A stretch of 64,000 nucleotides of DNA, from contig CAISJJ010000019.1 of assembly GCA_903885595.1 (NCBI GenBank), positions 8,697-72,696 of the forward strand, written 5' to 3'. The notes beneath the pieces were generated by a model. That model had not been told where the DNA came from, made no database searches, and saw only the letters and a program-made list of their open reading frames with translations. Below, piece after piece: positions 41,483-53,987 of the stretch; the stretch's first letter is position 1, and every line of letters begins with the position of its first letter. A program made the position numbers and the translations under genes. The stretch is from an uncultured Bacteroidales bacterium. Its GTDB lineage: Bacteria > Bacteroidota > Bacteroidia > Bacteroidales > FEN-979.

Positions 41483-42511
41483 TTACCAGCCTGTTGAAAT
41501 GCTGCCGTCGATGATGCCTGCTTTGATGTTTTCAATGGCAAGTTTCATGCTATCGGGTATCTGCGATTCATAATCGTGCCAGGGAGCCAGCTCTACACCC
41601 TGGTTCGACAGGTTGCCGGTGTAAATGCCACCGCCAATAAAGCGACCATAAATAAATGATTTAATTACTGCGTAAATAGCATTGTCGAGACTTTTCATGG
41701 CAGAAGAGATCAAAATGCCGGAAACCTCCGGAACAGATATAAACTGATCCACATCAACCCCAACACCCTGCTTTCCGAGTTCCATTGCTTTGAACAATGC
41801 TCCATTCCCAGTTTGTCCGCCCACACCAAACATCACATCGGCTCCGGTTGCAAACAGACTGTCGGCAAGATGCCCGCCCAACCCGGAATTGATGAAGGTC
41901 CCGGCGTAAACCCCGTGATGGGCTACTGTTTTTCCAAACTCCTGGTTAAACCGTTCGACCCCATTCAGGTAAGGCTCAGTAAACTGCCTGATAGTGGGAA
42001 TCTCAAACGCACCGACGAATCCCACTGCCGGGTTTTCGTTGTCATGAACATCGGCCCACCATGCTGATAAAAACCCCAATGGATATGCAACTTCATCCAC
42101 ATCGAACAAAACACTAACCGTGTTGGCCCGGGGTGGCGACAATTCAGCATCAACGAGAACGAATTTGGTTCCAGGGTAGTTATTTGCCGATGCTGCAACA
42201 GCATCATTCCACATATACCCAACGGCGATAATTAAATCGAAGTTCTGGTTAGCGAAGTATCCCAGCCTTTCCTGGTAGCTGTTGGTAGTTGTATCGATGC
42301 TATATTCACATTCGAGGCTGAAATCCGTTTTTGCCTTTTCGAGACCGGTTTTACAGCTTTGCAGGAATGCGCCATCATCGAAGGTAATACCCTGGGCCAG
42401 CATCGCTACCCTTATTTTTTGGTGTGATGAGTTGTCTTCTTGTTTGCAGGAAGGTATGACCCACAGGGCTCCTAATAATAACCAAAAAAAACAGCCTGTT
42501 GAATTATGCAT
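41483..42511 (-). CDS. BMP-family (PnrA-like) substrate-binding lipoprotein
   Basis: I place the start at the internal ATG at 42511 (MHNSTGCFFWLLLGALWVIPSC followed by KQED). It has IRVAMLAQGITFDDGAFLQS...DLIIAVGYMWNDAVAASANNYPGTKFVLVDA, as in Bmp/PnrA proteins. The -7 box at 42530-42537 excludes the longer ORF. Confidence 0.8.
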   Translation of the reverse strand: MHNSTGCFFWLLLGALWVIPSCKQEDNSSHQKIRVAMLAQGITFDDGAFLQSCKTGLEKAKTDFSLECEYSIDTTTNSYQERLGYFANQNFDLIIAVGYMWNDAVAASANNYPGTKFVLVDAELSPPRANTVSVLFDVDEVAYPLGFLSAWWADVHDNENPAVGFVGAFEIPTIRQFTEPYLNGVERFNQEFGKTVAHHGVYAGTFINSGLGGHLADSLFATGADVMFGVGGQTGNGALFKAMELGKQGVGVDVDQFISVPEVSGILISSAMKSLDNAIYAVIKSFIYGRFIGGGIYTGNLSNQGVELAPWHDYESQIPDSMKLAIENIKAGIIDGSISTGW

Positions 42512-42529
42512 TGTAAACACAATTTTCGG

Positions 42530-42537
42530 CAAAGATA
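42530..42537 (-). promoter_or_regulatory. -7 promoter box TATCTTTG
   Basis: The reverse complement of caaagata is TATCTTTG. It lies 19 nt upstream of the ATG at 42511. Confidence 0.4.
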
Positions 42538-42698
42538 AGAAAATGGCTGTTGTCACGGAGCACAAAGCCGGAAGGGAGGAGCCATGGGTACACCGGACGG
42601 AGGACGAGGGAGATTTTTCAACATTGGATCTATCTGGCGGACAATCCGGGATTAACACCCGGTAAACCGGAGGGGTAATTTTTTTGCCTCCAAGGAAT

Positions 42699-43835
42699 TC
42701 ATTTTGCTTCAAATTTGTAAATTCTGTATTGCTTAATGCACGTACCTCCTACTTTTTCGAGAATTGATTTCATTCTCAGGTTGTTTTCCATCACGTAACC
42801 GGCCTCTCCGTGATACATTCCCAGTGACATGCAATTTTCCTTTATTTTCTGATACAGGATCAGATCGATGCCCTTGTTCCTGAATTCATCGAGCATGCCC
42901 AGGATCAGAATGCGTGCATTGCTGATCTTTCGTTTGTACCAAATGAATTTAAGAATGCCGAATAATCCCAATTTTCCTGATTTGATGCGGCTGAATACCT
43001 GGTTCAGGTCGGGGAGGGCTATTATAAAACCAATGGGCTGCTGCCCTTTTTCGACGATCAGGATCAGTTTCTCCGGAACAAACTGGCTGAACTGCCGGGC
43101 AGTGCTTCTGAATTCCGGTTCAGTCATTGGCAGGAATCCCCAGTTGTCTTTATTCGCCTGATTGTAGACTCCAAGCAAGGGCACTATTTCCTGGTCGAGC
43201 GTTTTATAGTTAATCGCCCTGATTTTTATATCGGATTCCGCAAGATGATCGCTGATCCGTTTTACCATTCTTAGCACGGAGGGTGACAATAAAACCCGGT
43301 CATCCTGCAAGGTGTAGGAAGATAAATCCATTTCCTTTTCAAACCCGAACCGGAGGAGGAAATCATTGTACCAGGGCTTGTTGTATGGCATCATCACAAC
43401 CGGCGGGGTGTCGAATCCCGAAATCAGCATTCCGCACGATTCATTGGTTGTAAAGTTTTCAGGGCCTCGAAGGGTTGTCAAACCTTCCTCCCTGATCCAG
43501 CTTACTGCCTTGTTGAGCAGGGCTGCAGCCACTTCAAAATCATTCACTGATTCGAAAAAGCCAAAAAAACCACACAGTTCACCGGTATGGCTGATGTGGT
43601 TATTATTCCTTATCAGAGCGATGCGGCCGGCCACCTGGTTTTCTTTACATGCCAGGAAAAAATCGACCTTTGAATGCAGGAAAAATGGATTCTTCTTCCG
43701 GTCGAACAGGGACTGTTGCATGACAAAGGGCTCCTGGATATAACATGGATCATCGCGGTATAAAATATGGGGAAACCGGATGAACCGCCTGAGATCCTTC
43801 ACAGACATTACTTCATGTATTTCAATCATGATCAT
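42699..43835 (-). CDS. ~380-aa GNAT-fold acyltransferase-like protein of an uncharacterised family
   Basis: It has an N-terminal ...LRRFIRFPHILYRDDPCYIQEP...KKNPFFLHSKVDFFLA...GRIALI...GFFGFFES pattern. A C-terminal acetyl-CoA-site-like RILILGMLDEFRNKGIDLILY follows. It resembles a widespread but unstudied Bacteroidota GNAT family (from memory). Its start overlaps the upstream stop by 4 nt. Confidence 0.7.
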   Translation of the reverse strand: MIMIEIHEVMSVKDLRRFIRFPHILYRDDPCYIQEPFVMQQSLFDRKKNPFFLHSKVDFFLACKENQVAGRIALIRNNNHISHTGELCGFFGFFESVNDFEVAAALLNKAVSWIREEGLTTLRGPENFTTNESCGMLISGFDTPPVVMMPYNKPWYNDFLLRFGFEKEMDLSSYTLQDDRVLLSPSVLRMVKRISDHLAESDIKIRAINYKTLDQEIVPLLGVYNQANKDNWGFLPMTEPEFRSTARQFSQFVPEKLILIVEKGQQPIGFIIALPDLNQVFSRIKSGKLGLFGILKFIWYKRKISNARILILGMLDEFRNKGIDLILYQKIKENCMSLGMYHGEAGYVMENNLRMKSILEKVGGTCIKQYRIYKFEAK

Positions 43836-45040
43836 TCAGCTATTTGTTTTTCAAGGGGCCTGCCATGGCGTTTGAATTCCTCCAGGCCACAGGAGGGAAC
43901 AAGCCTGCCTTCGTACAGCATGGCATCGGGACAGCCATCGCATTCATCTCTGATTCCATTTACAAAACCGGGTGGAATGATGTAACAGATCAGTTGAACG
44001 GTTGAACGCCTGAACAGGTTCAGGGGGTTCCGGATGATCTCTTTCAGGAAATTATACACGATAATCCTGAAGTCAGAAAGAAACAGGCTTAATAATACCA
44101 GCTGAATGAAATTCAGGTAACTTCTGCCGTTGCCGAATTTATAGGCATATTTCCCGGCGAACAAATGGTGGAAAACCTGGAACGATTCGACAAATTTCGG
44201 GCCTGTAAAACCAAGTATTTTTTTATTCAGGACGATGTAGGATGACTGCAGCCATTTGATGCGGGCATCTTCCAGCCTGCTTCCCAGGTAAGCTGAATAC
44301 CTTATGCCGGGAATAACAGTCTGCACCTGGTTGCACAGGTCTTCAGCATAGACCCATTTCGAACAATCCAGAATTTCATCTTTTTCAAAAAGAACCTGCC
44401 GGATGGGAATAAAGGTTACAAAATCAACGAGGCTGGCGTGTTCCACCGACCAGTTGATTACGGAACCAATCTCTTTGAGGTTGTCGTGGTTTACTACGCA
44501 CAGGAAGGTCAGGTGTATGCCTCCCACAGCATGAACCATTTCACCATAGCGTTTCCGGAGGTCATTGAGTTTCTCTTCCGTTACCGACCTGTGCCGGCTT
44601 AAAGAGTCGACCCTGATGATGAGGCCCGCCAGCCCCTCTTTTTTAAGCCCCGCAAGTACTTCACTGGTTAACAGCACCCCGTTTGTATGTACGAAGGGAA
44701 CCATATCGTGGTCCCTGATAAACCGGATGATGGTTCCGAGTTCAGGATGCAGGAATGGTTCTCCGCCACTGAGGGAGATGATCTGGCAATTCCGCAGCCG
44801 TTTCATCTCAAGGATGTTTTCCTTCACCTTTTCAATGGGTTGGTGAACGGGGATGTTGTCATCCCGGTCGCACCCCCTGTAACATCCCGGGCATTTGAGG
44901 TTGCAGTCGGTGGTTATCTCGACCCAACCGTTCGGGTTGTCGTTCTTGGTAAACGGCAGGCGGTACAGCGTCGAAATGTCAGGAAGTCCGGTTGCTATAT
45001 TCATCTTAGATTTGGTTAGTCGGATTGTTTTACGGTTCAT
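43832..45040 (-). CDS. Radical SAM enzyme (no B12-type N-terminal domain)
   Basis: The CxxxCxxC motif sits near the N-terminus (ITTDCNLKCPGCYR), followed by SLSGGEPFLHPEL and HTNG. The C-terminal Cys-rich tail reads IRDECDGCPDAMLYEGRLVPSCG. Confidence 0.85.
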   Translation of the reverse strand: MNRKTIRLTKSKMNIATGLPDISTLYRLPFTKNDNPNGWVEITTDCNLKCPGCYRGCDRDDNIPVHQPIEKVKENILEMKRLRNCQIISLSGGEPFLHPELGTIIRFIRDHDMVPFVHTNGVLLTSEVLAGLKKEGLAGLIIRVDSLSRHRSVTEEKLNDLRKRYGEMVHAVGGIHLTFLCVVNHDNLKEIGSVINWSVEHASLVDFVTFIPIRQVLFEKDEILDCSKWVYAEDLCNQVQTVIPGIRYSAYLGSRLEDARIKWLQSSYIVLNKKILGFTGPKFVESFQVFHHLFAGKYAYKFGNGRSYLNFIQLVLLSLFLSDFRIIVYNFLKEIIRNPLNLFRRSTVQLICYIIPPGFVNGIRDECDGCPDAMLYEGRLVPSCGLEEFKRHGRPLEKQIAE

Positions 45041-45085
45041 TATGCTTATTTAAGCTGATCATTTCACAAATGACAATCAATGATG

Positions 45086-45210
45086 TTTTCTTTGTGATTC
45101 TAAGTGTCTACTATGTGAACTCCGTGTAATTTTCTTTCATGGAGAGCCTCGTTGAAATCTTCTTTCACGGAGAACCACGGAGAGATTACACAGAGAGCTA
45201 CAAAGAAAGA
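45086..45210. repeat. Imperfect inverted/direct word repeats (CTCCGTG / CACGG(G)AGAG / CACAGAGAG)
   Basis: ctccgtgtaat (45120-45130) faces attacacagag (45186-45196), with 10 of 11 positions complementary. ttctttcatggagag (45132-45146) and ttctttcacggagaac (45160-45175) are direct repeats. ctttgtga (left) faces tacaaag (right). The repeats lie in the 211-nt gap inside the rSAM operon. Confidence 0.6.
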
Positions 45211-45251
45211 ATTTATAAGTTGTTCCAATTTTAAATTAAAAAACATATTTG

Positions 45252-46574
45252 TCATACAATCAGCGGTGTTTCCCCCTTCTTAACATAAGAACGGTAATGC
45301 AGATTCACGGCGAATGCAAAGATGTAATTCACCGGATGCTTCAGTATCTGCCTGTTCAGCAGCGTACGGCAGACGATTCCGCCCAGGGAGAATATTTTTC
45401 CATTTAGCCAGTGGTACATCAAAGTCAGATTTTCCGGGGTGATTTGTTCAGGGTAATGAACACATTCCGATGCTGTATAATGGTCGAAATTCTCATGAAT
45501 CAGCCGGCCTGCTGCCTTATATTCAAGATAGAGCCGGGTAGCGGGAACGGGCGTTAAAAAGTAGATGCGCAGCAAGGGAATTTTACATTTCCTGATGAAA
45601 TCCCAGGTTGCCTGCAACGACTCCGTGGTATCTCCATCTGTCCCGATGATCATCTCGGCGCTTATCATAATCCCGGCCTTATTGAAAGCAGCCATCAGCT
45701 TTTGATGGTCATCGGTCCTGAGCCACTTCTTATTCAGCTTGTCAAGGCCCTCCTGCGAAATACTTTCAAGGCCAAGGCTGAGGATCTCACACCCCGACCG
45801 GGCCACCAGTTTCAGCAACGATTCATTCCGGGCCAGGTTCATGGTGCACTGGCTCGACCACTTCATTTTCATCGGGAGTATCCTTCTGCACAGTTCCTCC
45901 AGGTATGCAGGGTTGCTCACAATGTTGTCATCAATCATATAAAACTTATGATACCCGAGACTTTTAATCTTTTCAATGTCCCTGATCACCTCGTCAACAG
46001 GTCTTGCCATGTGACGGCCCTTATACAAGCAGGCGATGGAGCAAAAGCTGCATGTGTGGTTGCAACCCCTTCCCGCCTGCACAGGCAGCATGTCGCCGAT
46101 TCGCTTTTCGGCAAGCATTTCATAACGGGGAAGCGGCAAATTGTTAAGGTCACCGACCGGATTGTTGTAAACAGGTTGCAGCCTGCCATGCTTCTCAAAA
46201 TCCGACAGCAGCAACGGGAACGATATTTCCGCATCCCCGATGACAATACTGTCGACAAATTTCAACGCAAGTTCCGGGACCATCGAGGCCATATAGCCTC
46301 CCATGAAAACGATCTTTCCTCTTTTTCTGAATTCCCCGGCCAGGTCGAAGGCCCTGAAAATGGCGTGTCCCATGGCGCCAATGCCAATGATATCCGCATC
46401 CGTGTCGAAGCTGATCTCCTCAATGACTTCAAGTTTGATTTCCACCTCCCAGTTTCCGGGAGCCATGGCAGCCAGGAGCGGAAACACCAATCCCGGCAGG
46501 TAAAGTTTCTTCTGCCTTACAACATTCCCGGTTGAAAGATATTGAGAGGATTGTATCAGCAGGACCTTAGGCAT
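45252..46574 (-). CDS. Class B-like (B12-binding-domain type) radical SAM enzyme
   Basis: A ~170-aa Rossmann-like N-terminal extension (KVLLIQSS...GLVFPLLAAMAP...IIGIGAMG) precedes VQAGRGCNHTCSFCSI (CxxxCxxC). Confidence 0.85.
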   Translation of the reverse strand: MPKVLLIQSSQYLSTGNVVRQKKLYLPGLVFPLLAAMAPGNWEVEIKLEVIEEISFDTDADIIGIGAMGHAIFRAFDLAGEFRKRGKIVFMGGYMASMVPELALKFVDSIVIGDAEISFPLLLSDFEKHGRLQPVYNNPVGDLNNLPLPRYEMLAEKRIGDMLPVQAGRGCNHTCSFCSIACLYKGRHMARPVDEVIRDIEKIKSLGYHKFYMIDDNIVSNPAYLEELCRRILPMKMKWSSQCTMNLARNESLLKLVARSGCEILSLGLESISQEGLDKLNKKWLRTDDHQKLMAAFNKAGIMISAEMIIGTDGDTTESLQATWDFIRKCKIPLLRIYFLTPVPATRLYLEYKAAGRLIHENFDHYTASECVHYPEQITPENLTLMYHWLNGKIFSLGGIVCRTLLNRQILKHPVNYIFAFAVNLHYRSYVKKGETPLIV

Positions 46575-47967
46575 GTTTCGTCACCTCCATGATTTTCTTC
46601 CTGTATTGCTGTTTTACTTTTATCAGACCTTTTGCCAATTTTATCTGCATATGCAGCGGATATTTCAAAAGGCTGAGGAGGTTTTTCGGGTGGAGGATGA
46701 TCCGGAGATAGAGATCCCGGATGTTTTTATAATACGCTTCAAGGCTCATTTTTTCGGGACGGATGGCAACATGGGCGAGGTCCCATTTCACGAAGTCGTT
46801 TCTGCCGATTACAAGATCTGCTTCATTCACCTTCAGACCGGTTCCTTTCAATGGTGTGAGCGGTTGCAGGTTTACGAACTTTATCCCGAGTTCAAGCATG
46901 ATATCGCCCGCTTTTCTGAAATCGCGTGCACTCCAGGAAGGTGAAACAATGACGGCTGCATAACAATCCACCTTGCATGTGTTCAGTACAGCCATGGCCT
47001 GCCTGTTTGTATCACTGCTGGTTTGTTTATTAAAATCAAGCAGCTCAGGATCGTCAAATGATTCGAGCCCGACAATCACCGTTCTCAGTCCAGCCTCTTT
47101 GAATTCCCTTATCAGATCAGGATTGGCCGCGATAAAGTCGGCCCTTCCGTACACCAGGAATTTTTTCATGATCCCCCTTTCATTTAACTGGCGGATAAAT
47201 TCTTTGGTGCGTTTTACACTGACCAGGAAATCATCATCCACAATATAGATCTCCTTTTCCCTGATGGCTGACAATTCATCCATGACGTCATCCAGTGGAC
47301 GGGTAAAGTACCTGTCGCCGGTTATTTTCCTGCAAAAACAGAACTTGCATTGCCAGGGGCAGCCAAACGAGGTTTTTATCAAAGCCACCTTGTTGTGAAA
47401 CACATAAAAGTATTTGTCACGGTACTTTGCGGTAAGTTCCCGGTTGGGCAGCGGGATGTAAAAATCGTAATCCGGAAGCGTGGCTTCGTTTAACACCTCG
47501 TGTTTTCCCAGCGCTCCCGCAGGAAAGGATGATTTCCCATTCAGAAAACTGATAAGCTGCGGGAAAGATCTGGTAGCGTTTCGGACAATGCGGTAATCAA
47601 CCGATTCGTGGTCAATATCCTCAGGGAATTTTTCAAAATGTACACCGCCTGCAACAGTAATGATGTTCTTATTAATCAGTTTTGCAGCTGTACAATATTG
47701 AAGAATAACCGGAATGTGAGTAATATATCCGGTCAGACACAAAACATCCGGGGCGAATGTTCTTATAAAAACATCAACCGGCTCCTCTTCAAGAATCATA
47801 TCCACAATGCTGACCTCGTGCTCTTCCTGAACTAGCGCTGCAAGTATTTCCAACTCCAGGGGTTCCACAATCATCAGATGCTGGAGACCAATGGTATCGG
47901 GGGAGGGTTTAGGCCGGACAAACAGTATTTTCAACGGGTCAAATTTGATTTTCAACTTTAAATGCAT
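46567..47967 (-). CDS. Class B-like (B12-binding-domain type) radical SAM enzyme
   Basis: The N-terminal extension (ILFVRPKP...GLQHLMIVEPLELEILAALV...VLCLTGY) precedes KTSFGCPWQCKFCF (CxxxCxxC). It overlaps the downstream gene by 8 nt. Confidence 0.85.
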   Translation of the reverse strand: MHLKLKIKFDPLKILFVRPKPSPDTIGLQHLMIVEPLELEILAALVQEEHEVSIVDMILEEEPVDVFIRTFAPDVLCLTGYITHIPVILQYCTAAKLINKNIITVAGGVHFEKFPEDIDHESVDYRIVRNATRSFPQLISFLNGKSSFPAGALGKHEVLNEATLPDYDFYIPLPNRELTAKYRDKYFYVFHNKVALIKTSFGCPWQCKFCFCRKITGDRYFTRPLDDVMDELSAIREKEIYIVDDDFLVSVKRTKEFIRQLNERGIMKKFLVYGRADFIAANPDLIREFKEAGLRTVIVGLESFDDPELLDFNKQTSSDTNRQAMAVLNTCKVDCYAAVIVSPSWSARDFRKAGDIMLELGIKFVNLQPLTPLKGTGLKVNEADLVIGRNDFVKWDLAHVAIRPEKMSLEAYYKNIRDLYLRIILHPKNLLSLLKYPLHMQIKLAKGLIKVKQQYRKKIMEVTKHA

Positions 47968-48952
47968 GACATTTTTCAGGTGGTTTCGAATAGGTCAGAA
48001 AACCTTTAAATAACCTGAGAATATAAAGAATCGCGGGGTTCCGGTGATAGGCAAACATCCTTCTTTCACTCACATTCCCGCCAAGACGGATTTTGGCAAT
48101 TTCGGCGGTTTGTCCGAAATCGATAACCCCGTATTTATGCTCAACCGCTTTATTAATAATACCTAACAGGTTATTGTTGTAAGATTGATAAAGGTCCCTG
48201 AGGGCATAGTTCAGGCCGCCGAAAAAGAAAAACAGCACATCCGAATCTTTACAGACCACATGCCAGCACAACATCTTCTTTCCTGCGTTACAGGTGGTAA
48301 GCAGGAAGTTTGACGGAAGGTACCTGAATGCATCCAGGCTGAGGATTTCCAGTTTTGTCGTGGTCTTTTTCATGATTTCAAGGTACAAGGCATGATGCTC
48401 TTCGCTGAATACCGAGCAATCTGTGGTGACAGTCCTGACATCTGCGAATTTTTTCCTGATCCTGTGAATCCTTCTCCGGTAGCTGTGCCGGAGCGTATTT
48501 TCATAACCTGAAACACTCTTACTTTTTAATTTTAAGATTACCGTCGGCAATGTTCTCAAATTTAACACTTTATTCCTTAAGTGATCTTCCATAAAATTTA
48601 CCCCGACAATCAGTCCCGATTCAAGTTTAATAAGTTCTGACAGGAAATATTCAAATTCGCCGGGATCACCGATCATAGGCGGGGCTGCTACAGACACGGG
48701 CAATCCGATAATATGCGCTTTAAACGGACTTGGGATGTTGACAAAGGTGAAAATGTCGATCTTCAAGGTGTACACCACTGTTCCTGCAACCAGGTTATTG
48801 TCATGGTAGAGTTCATAATAACGCTGGGCGCAGGGGTTGTACCGGTGAAGGTGTTCCAGGAATTCTGATTTCTGAAAGTAGAAATCTGCCAGGTTATCCC
48901 ATTGGGCATTGAGGTGTTCAGGACTGCTCAATTTTTTAATCGCTTTCTTCAT
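47939..48952 (-). CDS. FemAB/GNAT-fold (acyl- or aminoacyl-transferase-like) protein
   Basis: I place the start at the ATG at 48952 (MKKAIKKLSS...), because the track start at 49051 is TTG. The N-terminal W..L......F...EFLE.L pattern and the C-terminal ...FFFFGGLNYALRDLYQSYNNNLLGIINKAVEHKYGVIDFGQTAEIAKIRLGG resemble FemAB-like/CelD-like GNAT families (from memory). It overlaps the downstream rSAM gene by 29 nt. Confidence 0.6.
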   Translation of the reverse strand: MKKAIKKLSSPEHLNAQWDNLADFYFQKSEFLEHLHRYNPCAQRYYELYHDNNLVAGTVVYTLKIDIFTFVNIPSPFKAHIIGLPVSVAAPPMIGDPGEFEYFLSELIKLESGLIVGVNFMEDHLRNKVLNLRTLPTVILKLKSKSVSGYENTLRHSYRRRIHRIRKKFADVRTVTTDCSVFSEEHHALYLEIMKKTTTKLEILSLDAFRYLPSNFLLTTCNAGKKMLCWHVVCKDSDVLFFFFGGLNYALRDLYQSYNNNLLGIINKAVEHKYGVIDFGQTAEIAKIRLGGNVSERRMFAYHRNPAILYILRLFKGFLTYSKPPEKCHAFKVENQI

Positions 48953-49302
48953 GTTTTTTGGCAATTGCCTCTCCGGGTCTGTCTCATGCTCATTCGCGTT
49001 AAAAGGTTTTGATTTTCGAAACGAATGTAATACAGGATTAAAAGGAATCAAAATTGATTTTCACGACAATTAAGAACCTTGTTGCAGAAAATCATAAAAA
49101 ATGGTGCCGGAGTTTGAATGTTAGTGAAAAATGTAATTTTAAAAAGCTGAAATGCCCGGCTGAACCCATAAAACAGCCTAAAGGTTTAAATAATCAGTGG
49201 CCCGATACCCTTTCTAATATAGGTTCTGTAATGAAAGTTGATATACAATGCGTAAAAGTTGATCAGTGGGCTGGTGAAAATAGTTCGCACAAACAGGTTT
49301 CT

Positions 49303-50233
49303 TTATAGGATGTTGGTGATTGAATAGGTATCATTGTAAATCCACCAATACATGGCGTCAGTTGTCGCAGGTGTCATTTGTGCAGGTCGATGGACGCAAG
49401 TAAAGCCGTTATACCTGTTAAAATCTTCATGCAGAAGCCTGTTTTCCTGTTTTAATTTCTTAAACAAATATGTTCCGGGAAGCGGTGTAAGCAGGTTGAA
49501 TACCGGAATAGCAATCTTGCTTTTTGCAATAAACCGTGAAGTTTTGCGGATGGTTTCCTCTGTGTCGTGGTCCGTTCCGATAAGAAAGGAGGCGAAGATC
49601 ACGATGCCGGCCTTCCGGATGTTTTTCAGTAATGCCGCTGTATCTGCGGTTTTCACCCATGATTTGTTAAACTCATCCAACCCTTCCTGGTTTATTCCCT
49701 CGATACCGACACTAAGCAGTTTACATCCCGATTTTGCTAATAATTTCAAGATGTTTTTATGCCGGGCAATGTTGATGGTGCATTGCCCGGCCCAGCTCAT
49801 TTTCAAGGGAATGATCTTCTTTAAAAGAGTTTCAAGGTAAGGTATGTTTCCTGCCATGTTATTATCCAGGAGCGTAAAGCGTTTATAACCCAATTGCCTG
49901 ATTATTTTAATGTCGCGGATGACTTCATCGACCGGCCTTACTGCATACTTGCCCCGGTGAATGCTCGAGTTTTCCCCGGGTACGGAATTCTTTTGCAATA
50001 TCCATTGCCCGGAATACGGAATAACCCATGGCGCCGAGTCCTACCAGATCACAATCTTCATCAAAGTCAACCTCATCGATGATCTCAATGATGATCTTTA
50101 CCTGCCAGTGACCAGGAACCATGGCTGCCAGCAACGGCAATGCAAGACCGGGTAACGACATGTGTTTTTCCTTGCACAATGTCCTGCCATCAGATTCGTA
50201 CTGCGACGGTAATATTAAAATTACTTTAGGCAT
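49303..50233 (-). pseudogene. Dead paralogue of the rSAM gene 45252-46574 (internal deletion plus frameshift, Fe-S motif lost)
   Basis: ORF 49925-50233 (MPKVILILPSQYESDGRTLCKEKHMSLPGLALPLLAAMVPGHWQVKIIIEIIDEVDFDEDCDLVGLGAMGYSVFRAMDIAKEFRTRGK) aligns to residues 1 to ~87 of the intact copy. ORF 49303-49998 (...HRGKYAVRPVDEVIRDIKIIRQLGYKRF...) aligns from ~191 onward (KGRHMARPVDEVIRDIEKIKSLGYHKF...). The two pieces are in different frames. The ~100 residues between them, which include GCNHTCSFC, are missing. Confidence 0.7.
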
Positions 50234-50258
50234 CTCCTGTTCGCTAAATATTTTTCAA

Positions 50259-51905
50259 TCATGGCCCGCGATATTCCATACGAATGGTTTCGGGCTGGTC
50301 GCCGGCAGGGAGGATAAAATGCCTTACAGATCCCAGGAAAACATATCCTGAAAGAACAGGGAAAGCAAAAACGGCCACGATCCATCCCAGGATGCACCAA
50401 AATGGCTTCTCAAGAAACATCATTCCCATCAAATGTTTCCATCGTTTCCGGAATCCTGTGCCATAAAACAGCAGTCCGCAGATGCACGAAAGGATATATA
50501 ATGGCGGCAGCATTTTTTTATATCCCTTAGCGCGGTTCCTGTGTTCAGGGCCATCCTCTTTTTCCAGTGATTGAATGCCCTTATACATATTTTCAAGCAT
50601 CCTGAAAGGCCAGGGGCCGCCTTCATCCACCAGTTTCTGGTAGGTGGTGAGGATATAATTCATGGATTCCTCCTGGGTGATATTTTTAAAGCGGAAGGAG
50701 GATTTTTCAAGCCGGGCTTTATCAAAGGAAAAATCAGGATTGATCCGACCCTCCTTTTTCATGCGCTGCCAGAGCGGTGTTCCGGGTACGGCCTGTAAGG
50801 GCATCACCTGGTACAAGGTCGGGTTCAGCTTTATAAACCGGTCAAGCTCCAGTGGAATTGATTCATTGGTGTGATCATCCCAGCCGATGATGATCGATCC
50901 GAGGGTGTGTATACCTGCACCATGAAGTTTGGCGAAAAGCTGCTCAATATCAACCTGACTGCCACCCCGTTTTTTAAGTTTTTCGGTTTCAAGAAGATCG
51001 TTATTAAAAGATTCGACTCCTATGTACAACATTCCGATACCACACCGGATAAGTTCCGAAAGGGTGTACCTGGCCACATTGTGTGCCGAGGAAAAGACCG
51101 TAAGATAAAAGGGGCGGCTTATCAGTTCGGAATCCTTTTCCATGCAATGCATAAATTCAAGGACCGCTTCACGGTTTTCCAGGAAATCTTCATCAAAGAT
51201 CACCCCGGAGGTGGCACGGGGATATTTACCGGCGCCCTGTTTAACACTTTTGTACAGATTTTCACCCGAAAACAATATCTTTTTTTGTTTAAACTGGCTG
51301 GAGGTGGAACAAAAACTGCAATGAAAATTACATCCGAGGGCTGCCATGAAATTCAGATTCAAATGAATGGGGAAGCGGGTCCTGAAAAAACTGACCTCGA
51401 TTGGCAGAAGGTCCTGTGTGAGAGGCTGACTGGTTATGATCCCATACTTTTCCTTCAGATAACTTGACAGAAAGGCTAAACCTTCTCCTGTACAAATATG
51501 ATCAACCGTATTTCTCAGTTGTTCAGAAATTTTATACGATTCACTGAAAACAGCCGTGCCATATCCTCCGATGATAATTTCTGTTCCGGGAGAATGATTT
51601 TTCACCCAGGTTGCCATTTCAAGTATCCGGGAGGCCGTGATCACACTAAAGGTAAATGCTACAACATCGTAGTGATGATGCGAAATTTCCTGTTTGAACA
51701 GTTTAAATGAGGGATTTTCCAAAACCACAGACGATACCGGCAAATTTTGAGCGAGAAAATGCAATGGATGCCAGCTTTGGTTCTGGCGAAGTTGAAAAAT
51801 GCCCTGCCTGAGTGTATTCCTGTAATAAAAAAAATCAATATTATCCTCAAATAAACTGGCTTTCGGATAAGGAATATAAGGCGTGGCAAACAGGACATTC
51901 ACCAT
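50259..51905 (-). CDS. Class B-like radical SAM enzyme with C-terminal transmembrane hairpin
   Basis: The N-terminal extension precedes MAALGCNFHCSFCST (CxxxCxxC). The last ~90 aa contain two hydrophobic helices (MLPPLYILSCICGLLFYGTGF and FWCILGWIVAVFAFPVLSGYVFLG). Confidence 0.85.
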   Translation of the reverse strand: MVNVLFATPYIPYPKASLFEDNIDFFYYRNTLRQGIFQLRQNQSWHPLHFLAQNLPVSSVVLENPSFKLFKQEISHHHYDVVAFTFSVITASRILEMATWVKNHSPGTEIIIGGYGTAVFSESYKISEQLRNTVDHICTGEGLAFLSSYLKEKYGIITSQPLTQDLLPIEVSFFRTRFPIHLNLNFMAALGCNFHCSFCSTSSQFKQKKILFSGENLYKSVKQGAGKYPRATSGVIFDEDFLENREAVLEFMHCMEKDSELISRPFYLTVFSSAHNVARYTLSELIRCGIGMLYIGVESFNNDLLETEKLKKRGGSQVDIEQLFAKLHGAGIHTLGSIIIGWDDHTNESIPLELDRFIKLNPTLYQVMPLQAVPGTPLWQRMKKEGRINPDFSFDKARLEKSSFRFKNITQEESMNYILTTYQKLVDEGGPWPFRMLENMYKGIQSLEKEDGPEHRNRAKGYKKMLPPLYILSCICGLLFYGTGFRKRWKHLMGMMFLEKPFWCILGWIVAVFAFPVLSGYVFLGSVRHFILPAGDQPETIRMEYRGP

Positions 51906-52068
51906 GGTTTAATCAATAACAGGCTAAAATAGGAGTTTTTCATTAAATCAATCGTAATATTTGACCAAAAAGGATAAACACCGGTTACGGGCTGATAACA
52001 AAATATGCTATGAAATGCATGGATCGAAATATCTGTCCCCGGAAGCGGAACAGGCAAAAAATTATATA

Positions 52069-52076
52069 TATCTTTG
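52069..52076 (+). promoter_or_regulatory. -7 promoter box TATCTTTG
   Basis: It matches TAnnTTTG and lies about 60 nt upstream of the ATG at 52138, in the 232-nt divergent intergenic region shared with the rSAM operon. Confidence 0.35.
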
Positions 52077-52137
52077 TTTGCATATACAATTCATTTATTC
52101 CAAACATACTGCACCCAACCTAAGAGTTGCACAATAA

Positions 52138-52677
52138 ATGACATTCCACCAGATCATCCTTTTTTCCTTTTTAACTGTCGTTGCGGTCATTCTTTTATCG
52201 GGACACCAGGTAAGGATTTACCGGATTAAAAAAGCCAAGAACAGGGCATCTAAACCGCCGGGAGCGAGGAAAGTAAAACTTGAGTTAAAGGGGGATATCT
52301 TCGAACTGGACAAACTGGCCATTATTCTTGAAGATCTTGTGCGTTACCAGGTTCCGGTTAAAACCATTCTTGATCTGAATATTATACTGGAAGAGGTTTA
52401 TACAAGCATTGTCAATCACCAGGAAGAGGACCAGCATGATAAAAAGGTTCTCATCACGCTGATGCTGGAGCCTGGCCAGATCAGTGCCTTTGTAAAGGAC
52501 TCCAATGATGAATTTGATCCTACGGTGATACAGGCGATTGATTTAAATGCTCCTATCGAAGAAATTTCCTTCCAGGGGCTGGGCTTTCATATGGTGAGGC
52601 ACCTGGCCGATCAACTGATTTATCAAAGGCTAGAGGATCAGAACATCCTGACCATCAGGAAAACTTACACGATCTGA
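52138..52677 (+). CDS. Membrane-anchored RsbW/SpoIIAB-like HATPase (anti-sigma-type Ser kinase fold)
   Basis: It has an N-terminal TM helix (IILFSFLTVVAVILLS). Then come LNIILEEVYTSIVNH (N-box-like), VKDSNDEFDP and FQGLGFHMVRHLADQLIYQR, which is the HATPase_c_2 layout. Confidence 0.65.
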   Translation: MTFHQIILFSFLTVVAVILLSGHQVRIYRIKKAKNRASKPPGARKVKLELKGDIFELDKLAIILEDLVRYQVPVKTILDLNIILEEVYTSIVNHQEEDQHDKKVLITLMLEPGQISAFVKDSNDEFDPTVIQAIDLNAPIEEISFQGLGFHMVRHLADQLIYQRLEDQNILTIRKTYTI

Positions 52678-53987
52678 TGAAAAGGCTGAAATTCATAGAG
52701 GCACTGTTACGATGGAAATGGTATCCAGATATTTTGAGAATCCCATTCTTTATAGGAACTATTTACCTGTTGTATGTGTTGTTATTCGGAGATCAGGCTG
52801 AAGGCAGGAATACCGGCCTATCGATGATTTGGGTGCTTCTCTGGTCCATGTTACCCATTGCGTTTCTCATTATGGGTCGTTTTTGGTGCGGGTTATGCCC
52901 TTTCGGTACAGCTGGCGACCTGGTGCAAAAAGCCGTTGGCAATGAAATTCATCCCCCTCTTTTTCTCAAAAAGTGGGGAGTCTGGTTTGCATATACCTTT
53001 TTCATCGTGATCCTGCTCATTGAGACTTTGGTTCATATGGCCAGCTCCACGGCCGCATCCAGTATTTTATTATTGTCCATTTTCACGATGGCCATGATTT
53101 CCGGAGCCTTTTTCAAACGACGGACATGGTGCCGCTACTTATGTCCCCTGGGTGTTGCGGGTGGCGTTTTTTCTAGGCTCAGAATCATAAAGCTAAGTAA
53201 AGACAATGCAATTTGCAATGACTGCAAAGAGTTTGAATGCCTCCAGGGCTCTGAGAAATCAAAAGGCTGCCCCATGGGTCTGTGCATAAAAAAGCATGAT
53301 TTGGATGCGGATTGCATTTCATGCGGAAATTGTCTGAAAAACTGCCCAAATGATTCCCCGCGCATTCAATTGCGTTCTCCTGTTAAGGGCTTCCTGTCGA
53401 ATGTAAAACTGAACCAGGCAGAATCGGCATTCGCAAGCAGTTTTATCGGGTTTTCGATAGCTTTATACCTGGTTAAGGATTATCTGGATAAAGTAAACCG
53501 GGCTGTCGGGTCAGGGAATCCTTTATGGAATGAACTCCTGGTCATCATCGTTTTCACCGGGCTGTCGTTTTCACTCTTTTACATATTCAGTTACATCATC
53601 CGTCCCATAACCAGGCAATCGCAAAAGTATAACTTCAGGTTTTTCGGGTTCTTCCTGATTCCTTACATCTTTTTTGCCTTGGTTAACCTGACTGCCATCC
53701 ATGGGGTATCCCTGAACGGGATGACCCTTTTTTACAATGTAAAAATGCTGCTGGGCCTTCCGCTGCAAGGGCCTCTTTTCCACCACCACCCCCTCATCAG
53801 CGCCCAGGCCAAGCACATCATCCAGGGGTTGGGGATCCTGGCCGGAAACATTATCTCCATTGTTTTTTGCTTACAGGAACTGCAGAAGGTTCTTAACAAC
53901 AGGCAACGGAATAAGATCATAGCTGTATTCAGCGTTTTTCTGGTGGGGGTGACGGGGTTGAGTCTATACCTGTTTATGTTTCTTTAG
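52677..53987 (+). CDS. Polytopic membrane 4Fe-4S protein (NapH/MauN-like polyferredoxin)
   Basis: It has two membrane-edge CxxCP motifs (RFWCGLCPFG and TWCRYLCPLG). It also has ferredoxin-type clusters (CNDCKEFEC...CPMGLC and CISCGNCLKNCP) and further C-terminal TM helices. Its ATG overlaps the preceding TGA by 1 nt (TGATG). Confidence 0.8.
   Translation: MKRLKFIEALLRWKWYPDILRIPFFIGTIYLLYVLLFGDQAEGRNTGLSMIWVLLWSMLPIAFLIMGRFWCGLCPFGTAGDLVQKAVGNEIHPPLFLKKWGVWFAYTFFIVILLIETLVHMASSTAASSILLLSIFTMAMISGAFFKRRTWCRYLCPLGVAGGVFSRLRIIKLSKDNAICNDCKEFECLQGSEKSKGCPMGLCIKKHDLDADCISCGNCLKNCPNDSPRIQLRSPVKGFLSNVKLNQAESAFASSFIGFSIALYLVKDYLDKVNRAVGSGNPLWNELLVIIVFTGLSFSLFYIFSYIIRPITRQSQKYNFRFFGFFLIPYIFFALVNLTAIHGVSLNGMTLFYNVKMLLGLPLQGPLFHHHPLISAQAKHIIQGLGILAGNIISIVFCLQELQKVLNNRQRNKIIAVFSVFLVGVTGLSLYLFMFL

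Follow-up and report, generated by a model that had tools for sequence, protein, structure and literature searches.

The DNA analysed here is a stretch of 64,000 nucleotides (nt) from an uncultured Bacteroidales bacterium of the GTDB lineage FEN-979 (assembly GCA_903885595.1, contig CAISJJ010000019.1, positions 8,697 to 72,696 of the forward strand), referred to below as the window. It contains two overlapping genes that encode a membrane-anchored HATPase_c_2 protein of 179 residues and a polyferredoxin of 436 residues. This HATPase/polyferredoxin pair is a real, rare and self-contained two-gene membrane cassette. The pair had been picked out in an initial annotation made from the sequence alone, and the ORF (open reading frame) coordinates given there, the 1 nt overlap between TGA and ATG and the gap of 232 nt to a neighbouring operon of radical S-adenosylmethionine (rSAM) genes are all reproduced by the ORF list and the sequence. 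The parts of the cassette, in window coordinates, are as follows.

52049-52137, + strand: conserved upstream block of the cassette (homology with the related loci L070, L075 and L071 resumes at 52020-52059)
52138-52677, + strand: HATPase_c_2 gene, 179 residues (ORF list)
52141-52212, + strand: transmembrane (TM) helix of the HATPase protein, approximately residues 2-25 (hydropathy and AlphaFold2 model)
52675-52679, + strand: TGATG stop/start overlap of 1 nt (sequence)
52677-53987, + strand: polyferredoxin gene, 436 residues (ORF list)
52887-52901, + strand: CxxCP motif of the polyferredoxin, C71-P75 (alignment)
53130-53147, + strand: CxxxCP motif of the polyferredoxin, C152-P157 (alignment)
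53214-53348, + strand: two [4Fe-4S] motifs of the polyferredoxin (alignment; predicted from motifs)
53415-53984, + strand: C-terminal five-TM domain of the polyferredoxin, residues 247-436 (topology)

At the junction of the two genes (...ATCTGATGAAA) the TGA of the first occupies 52675-52677 and the ATG of the second 52677-52679, with one base in common. The 232 nt gap runs from the ATG of the HATPase gene to the start, at 51905, of the divergent rSAM gene (50259-51905). Within the conserved upstream block, the sequence TATCTTTG (52069-52076) resembles the Bacteroidetes -7 promoter box TAnnTTTG and may be part of a promoter. The absence of a STAS antagonist or sigma-factor partner at this locus, which had been remarked on at the outset, is real: there is no STAS gene on the contig of the window, and the nearest sigma-70_r2 gene is approximately 47 kb from the pair. 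The genome has 20 matches to the sigma-70 family, none of them near the pair, and six STAS candidates; a canonical HATPase_c_2 + STAS module is found elsewhere in the same genome, on C326.

The first protein is membrane-anchored and RsbW-like, as had been supposed. PF13581 (HATPase_c_2) matches residues 66-175 (nt 52333-52662) with 49.8 bits against a cut-off of 27.4. The sole hydrophobic segment at the N-terminus comprises residues 2-20 (hydropathy of 2.24) and is followed by a linker rich in Lys and Arg, so that the GHKL domain should be cytoplasmic. The AlphaFold2 model (pLDDT, the predicted local distance difference test score, of 78) consists of a long N-terminal helix (residues 3-35) and an alpha/beta domain. 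A Foldseek comparison of this model with the PDB gave SpoIIAB, RsbW, UsfX and SiaB as the best matches (E of 2e-8 to 5e-4); for 1til, 1l0o and 6m37 the E values are 2e-8 to 3e-7 and the target TM-scores 0.77-0.87. As modelled, the protein has a GHKL/Bergerat fold like that of SpoIIAB and RsbW. Its scores against the RsbW equivalogs NF003144 and TIGR01924 and the SpoIIAB equivalog TIGR01925 are 28.4, 23.6 and 16.7 bits, respectively, against cut-offs of 145, 155 and 135.

The HATPase_c_2-like core named in the initial annotation stands as a domain, but its ATP site is degenerate. In an alignment with RsbW (6m36), the protein retains E86 as the N-box Glu, D121 as the G1 Asp, F126 and the 'GLG' of G2. 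The N-box Asn, which is a ligand of Mg-ATP, is replaced by S90 in the window and by Ser, Gly or Ile in 24 of 27 Bacteroidales sequences, while the G1-box Gly is replaced by Asn (N123 in the window) in all 27. The same patchy loss of ATP-site residues is seen in a few weaker TM-anchored relatives. The gene nevertheless remains under purifying selection (ratio of nonsynonymous to synonymous substitution rates, dN/dS, of 0.14-0.24), and since this constraint persists despite the loss of both the Asn that binds Mg-ATP and the Gly of G1, the Bacteroidales protein probably works by binding and not as a kinase. Few stretches of the alignment are as well conserved as the lid segment, IDLNAPxEEISFxGLGFH. 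F11 in the TM helix is invariant, which is consistent with a specific packing of this helix.

The second protein is polytopic and NapH-like, again as annotated. Two stretches match Fer4_5 (43.9 bits), the matches to Fer4 are weak, hydropathy and the AlphaFold2 model (pTM, the predicted TM-score, of 0.80) give approximately nine TM helices, and residues 1-240 make up the NapH-like half. Twelve Cys residues are invariant in an alignment of 43 sequences: C71xxC74P, C152xxxC156P, C180xxC183xxxxC188...C198P and C213xxC216xxC219xxxC223P. They bear out the two ferredoxin-type Cys clusters that had been noticed; as for the two CxxCP motifs, the first is as described, whereas the second is CxxxCP in the alignment. 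The predicted topology places the N-terminus inside, the Cys motifs and the Fe-S domain in the cytoplasm and the C-terminus outside. Residues 240-436 have no Pfam match even at E <= 1, and no fold match in the PDB was found for the model of the whole protein (best E of 0.19). The gene is under purifying selection (dN/dS of 0.08-0.12). A loop predicted to face outwards (residues 342-380; window 53700-53790) contains a His triplet, H369-H371, and H342, in which no clear haem-binding or metal-binding motif could be made out.

Orthologues of the HATPase protein form approximately 40 clusters, all of about 180 residues and 56-79% identical, and all of them come from Bacteroidales/Bacteroidota metagenome-assembled genomes (MAGs) and metagenomes. 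In every locus that covers the junction, the polyferredoxin gene lies directly downstream with an overlap of 1 or 4 nt, so the two genes were rightly regarded as a genuinely coupled pair. Because such overlaps accompany the TGATG of the window, the arrangement points to translational coupling. The overlapping two-gene unit was found in approximately 15 different neighbourhoods. When the flanking ORFs of 18 loci were compared all-against-all, only the two genes of the pair were common throughout; the flanks are diverse and include a GH36 glycosidase, a beta-CASP nuclease, a P-type ATPase, a PAS hybrid kinase and an HATPase_c_2-GNAT protein. The last of these, approximately 500 residues long, combines an HATPase_c_2 domain at its N-terminus with a GNAT acetyltransferase domain (L037:8400-9917; L056:16666-18159; G000:C78:246-626). 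In one MAG its gene immediately precedes the pair, in another it is 5 kb distant, and many relatives without the pair also have it. A full-text literature search found no paper that describes the pairing of an HATPase_c_2/RsbW protein with a polyferredoxin, in agreement with the earlier impression that it is not a described module.

The cassette is rare at every scale of sampling. It is present in two of 37 genomes of the same genus, in one of 401 sampled Bacteroidota and in seven of 185,579 species genomes. A search of 1.84 billion representatives with the HATPase protein gave five clusters at E <= 1e-30, together with the few weaker TM-anchored relatives, and neither a profile word-search nor a metagenome scan found TM-anchored HATPases beyond the Bacteroidales clade. 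Such a patchy distribution, combined with flanks that differ in many contexts, could arise if the cassette travelled on a mobile element, perhaps in the manner of a defence or toxin-antitoxin pair. However, PADLOC matches neither protein, and no integrase, transposase or repeat is consistently adjacent to the pair across its contexts. Further, twelve invariant Cys residues and strong purifying selection are typical of a redox enzyme, and the synteny of the flanks with the Bmp and amylase genes (described below) is stable among close relatives. Carriage as mobile cargo is accordingly very unlikely.

The neighbouring rSAM operon had given rise to a different proposal, namely that the membrane-associated B12-rSAM enzymes have in the polyferredoxin a low-potential reductant dedicated to them, and that the HATPase protein is an accessory of the polyferredoxin. 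Radical SAM enzymes do need a reductant, and in the window the pair diverges from the operon across the 232 nt gap. The features that bear on this proposal are as follows.

41483-42511, - strand: Bmp/PnrA-like lipoprotein gene (PF02608, 143.9 bits), which is beside the pair in L070, L071 and L075
42545-52019, - strand: block of 9.5 kb that spans the rSAM operon in full (42699-51905) and does not belong to the cassette (blastn colinearity)

Three relatives from metagenomes were aligned with the window by blastn (nucleotide identities of 88% for L070/L069, 84-88% for L075 and 75-80% for L071). They are colinear with the window through the Bmp gene to 42533-42544, and colinearity resumes at 52020-52059; in L070 it runs on through the pair, a methyltransferase gene and the amylase region to 57979. 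The intervening 9.5 kb, with the entire rSAM operon, are absent in L070/L069, L075 and L071, where the Bmp and HATPase genes are divergent neighbours approximately 20-170 bp apart. Relative to them the block is a lineage-specific indel, and the simplest account is that it was inserted between the pair and the Bmp gene. The Bmp/PnrA-like ORF is listed as 41483-42712 (- strand, 409 residues) with an upstream TTG start; it is probably over-extended. Homology with the relatives ends near 42544, and translation more likely starts at the ATG at 42511.

The converse arrangement is also found. Orthologues of the first rSAM gene, at 85% identity, occur in G013 and G028, two genomes of the same genus that are 98% complete and have neither the polyferredoxin nor the TM-anchored HATPase. 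In both, the surroundings of the operon differ from those in the window. The operon is syntenic in G013, and the sequence upstream of it there is unrelated to the window. A split or dead rSAM paralogue in the window (49303-50233, - strand) is absent from the operons of G013 and G028, which are syntenic in other respects; the first rSAM gene there is followed directly by a Fem-like gene. In G034, one same-genus genome that has the pair, the cassette is on a contig of 11.7 kb, of which only window positions 52113-53987 find a match.

Beyond these genomes, the initial annotation had asked whether such pairs recur next to B12-rSAM genes, and most contexts turned out to have no rSAM neighbour, an outcome that the annotation itself had named as fatal to the link. 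Approximately 12 other contexts lack a class-B rSAM gene within the flanks that were retrieved. In L046, L047, L053 and L074, a class-B (B12-dependent) rSAM gene of 619-629 residues is convergent just downstream of the polyferredoxin gene, and in L054 one lies at a distance of 2.4 kb, which would favour the reductant proposal. This rSAM protein is different, however, and is not orthologous to any rSAM protein of the window (44 bits). An enrichment of rSAM neighbours was considered and rejected: with the prompting window left out, the adjacency occurs in one lineage in approximately 14 contexts, which is within chance because the 6-Mb genome of the window itself has 40 rSAM matches. Since relatives have the pair between the same flanks without the operon, and G013 and G028 have the operon without the pair, we are highly confident that the two are functionally independent. 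This distribution refutes a dedicated link, and reduction of the rSAM enzymes by the polyferredoxin as their own donor is very unlikely. The blastn comparison attributes the adjacency of pair and operon to a lineage-specific insertion or deletion of 9.5 kb and not to a functional partnership, and the orphan rSAM operon should not be read together with the pair as its reductant.

The function of the cassette is better approached through its relatives in other phyla. The closest polyferredoxin homologue outside the Bacteroidota (37% identity) is encoded in Candidatus Magnetominusculus (Nitrospirota). The gene order there is a TM-anchored HATPase_c_2 protein (190 residues, 32% identical, E of 2e-32), a SoxA/TsdA-type cytochrome c and a polyferredoxin whose C-terminus carries a fused cytochrome c domain, likewise of the SoxA/TsdA type; a further cytochrome c gene is convergent, and genes for DsrE and rhodanese proteins lie upstream. 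The C-terminal fusion fits the predicted topology with the C-terminus outside and argues for transmembrane electron transfer, the polyferredoxin being a likely transmembrane conduit because a cytochrome c is found at this end. The HATPase protein of Magnetominusculus retains both the N-box Asn and the G1 Gly (EIFTNIITH, DDGREF). Altogether, the locus (L065:2754-9099) comprises the module, three SoxA/TsdA-type cytochrome c domains, DsrE and a rhodanese that binds cyclic nucleotide monophosphates, and its gene content hints at a link to thiosulfate/tetrathionate redox chemistry. Among 300 Nitrospirota genomes searched, the module was found solely in Magnetominusculus. The next-best Nitrospirota matches are ordinary soluble RsbW genes of 139 residues beside STAS genes (L084:1095-1905; L085:1489-2285), which fits a descent of the tethered HATPase from partner-switching kinases.

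Polyferredoxin homologues from Firmicutes (31-35% identity) have a different companion, in that exported, Met/His-rich YtkA/FixH-like proteins are encoded just upstream. In the Clostridium and Desulfitobacterium loci (L048:5444-7392 and L049:5517-7389), these partners are anchored at the C-terminus. YtkA domains function in copper handling in Bacillus subtilis (PMC13344008). The Firmicutes pairing suggests a split, uncharacterized metal-reductase system of the FixG/FixH type, and would be in keeping with a family whose members conduct electrons to acceptors beyond the cytoplasm. Among homologues from Chloroflexi and elsewhere, the small upstream gene is again a different one, and the RsbW-like partner is confined to the sub-branch of polyferredoxins from Bacteroidales and Magnetominusculus.

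For a coupled and conserved pair of this architecture that is independent of the rSAM operon, the best overall explanation is that the polyferredoxin transfers electrons in the membrane and the HATPase protein serves it as a redox-linked regulatory subunit, a reading in which our confidence is about even. The polyferredoxin would be an integral-membrane Fe-S electron-transfer protein of the NapH/NosR/CcoG superfamily, with four N-terminal TM helices that carry the CxxCP and CxxxCP motifs, a cytoplasmic domain with two [4Fe-4S] clusters and five more TM helices that end outside. It would most likely carry electrons between the outer face of the membrane and either the cytoplasmic face or the menaquinone pool. 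The HATPase protein, made in a coupled fashion from the overlapping upstream gene, would hold its RsbW-type domain at the cytoplasmic face by its single TM helix, presumably docked on the Fe-S domain. From there it could act as a redox-linked switch that either relays the conduit's redox state to a cytoplasmic partner (a sigma factor or STAS protein from another locus) or gates the conduit itself. In Bacteroidales this subunit would act via binding and not via phosphorylation.

The main rival is a structural accessory role. On this view the polyferredoxin, like CcoG/FixG or NapH, would do no more than transfer electrons or reduce a metal, and the RsbW-like protein would stabilize or shield its Fe-S domain and have no cytoplasmic client. 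The loss of ATP-site residues in Bacteroidales is as expected for such a role, as is the lack of a sigma-factor or STAS neighbour in any context, and the quite different small partners of the Firmicutes polyferredoxins imply that the upstream gene may be an exchangeable accessory. On the other hand, every characterized HATPase_c_2 protein among the fold matches (SpoIIAB, RsbW, UsfX and SiaB) is a signalling protein, the Nitrospirota orthologue has an intact ATP site that a structural role would not require, and the lid segment is strongly conserved. In SpoIIAB, the lid region is part of the partner-binding surface. On balance a purely structural role seems somewhat unlikely.

Several points nevertheless weigh against regulation by a redox-linked subunit. 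A STAS or sigma-factor gene was found beside the pair in none of the approximately 15 contexts, which makes a signalling output speculative. The Fe-S region of the polyferredoxin is modelled with low confidence (pLDDT < 50 at residues 178-217). No path for electrons through the C-terminal TM domain is evident, and the only near-invariant His of the protein is H342. That the two proteins touch, which way electrons flow and what is signalled to which client are inferences. A warning also comes from the history of NosR, NirI and RdhC, which, after first being taken for regulators, are today regarded as electron carriers (PMC5928378); the reinterpretation of NosR and RdhC likewise speaks for a structural role here.

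The reading as a redox-linked subunit can be taken a step further, to a new kind of redox sensor. A tethered (pseudo)kinase of the RsbW type would be under direct control of the Fe-S conduit and would itself bind or let go of a partner from another locus, either a sigma factor or a protein of the STAS type, so that partner switching would be wired to the redox state of the membrane, from the ATP-competent form in Nitrospirota to the binding-only form in Bacteroidales. In this full form the proposal is rather unlikely. We know of no earlier case of an anti-sigma-kinase fold attached to a membrane Fe-S protein of the NapH/CcoG type. If the complex is real, it would be the first such attachment known, and it would point either to gene regulation coupled directly to electron flow in the membrane or to an unfamiliar mode of gating an electron conduit. 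It would also offer a handle on a widespread and uncharacterized branch of polyferredoxins of approximately 450 residues, the small partners of which vary by phylum (RsbW-like, YtkA/FixH-like or cytochrome c).

Comparison with known systems places both proteins in known superfamilies, and by the model scores neither belongs to a named family. The HATPase protein has the same predicted Bergerat/GHKL fold as RsbW, SpoIIAB, UsfX and SiaB and keeps E86, D121, F126 and the G2 'GLG'. Unlike all four, it has an N-terminal TM anchor, and its gene partner is a polyferredoxin and not a STAS or sigma-factor gene. Unlike RsbW and SpoIIAB, the Bacteroidales proteins lack the N-box Asn and the G1 Gly, and the equivalog scores are below the cut-offs.

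CcoG is a cupric reductase, and CcoG/FixG acts with FixH in the assembly of cbb3 oxidase. Like CcoG/FixG, the polyferredoxin is a polytopic Fer4_5 protein encoded beside a small partner gene, but the partner here is cytoplasmic and RsbW-like, whereas that of CcoG/FixG is FixH. The polyferredoxin has no NCBIfam match to a CcoG model at E <= 0.01, and a Pfam search did not find the Ig-like FixG_C domain.

The resemblance to NapH/MauN (TIGR02163), NosR/NirI and RdhC (PceC) is closer in outline: the predicted layout of the polyferredoxin, in which four TM helices bear a pair of Cys-Pro motifs on the cytoplasmic side, recalls that of these proteins, and NapH and NosR have two C-terminal [4Fe-4S] motifs, as does the NapH-like half of the polyferredoxin. 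The scores are nonetheless far from the cut-offs (49.2 bits against 213 for TIGR02163 and 41.3 against 234 for NF007013, both NapH/MauN models, and 23.3 against 1000 for the NosR model NF046105). The first motif of the polyferredoxin is CxxCP, compared with CX3CP in NapH, and the second is CxxxCP, so that one of the two deviates. The polyferredoxin also differs from NapH in its extra C-terminal domain of 190 residues and five TM helices, which has no Pfam family. The N-terminal periplasmic FMN-binding domain that is a feature of NosR/NirI gave no FMN_bind match in a Pfam search of the polyferredoxin, and no Nap, Mau, Nos or Rdh genes are near the pair in any context looked at.

The membrane module common to NapH-, NosR- and RdhC-type proteins is described in PMC5928378, which also summarizes the finding of Kern and Simon (2009) that NapH of Wolinella succinogenes recruits the cytoplasmic NapF to the membrane via its first Cys motif. 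NapF is an Fe-S maturation protein and does not have a GHKL fold, whereas the HATPase protein brings a TM anchor of its own; NapH-NapF nevertheless provides a precedent for the docking of a cytoplasmic partner on a NapH-type module.

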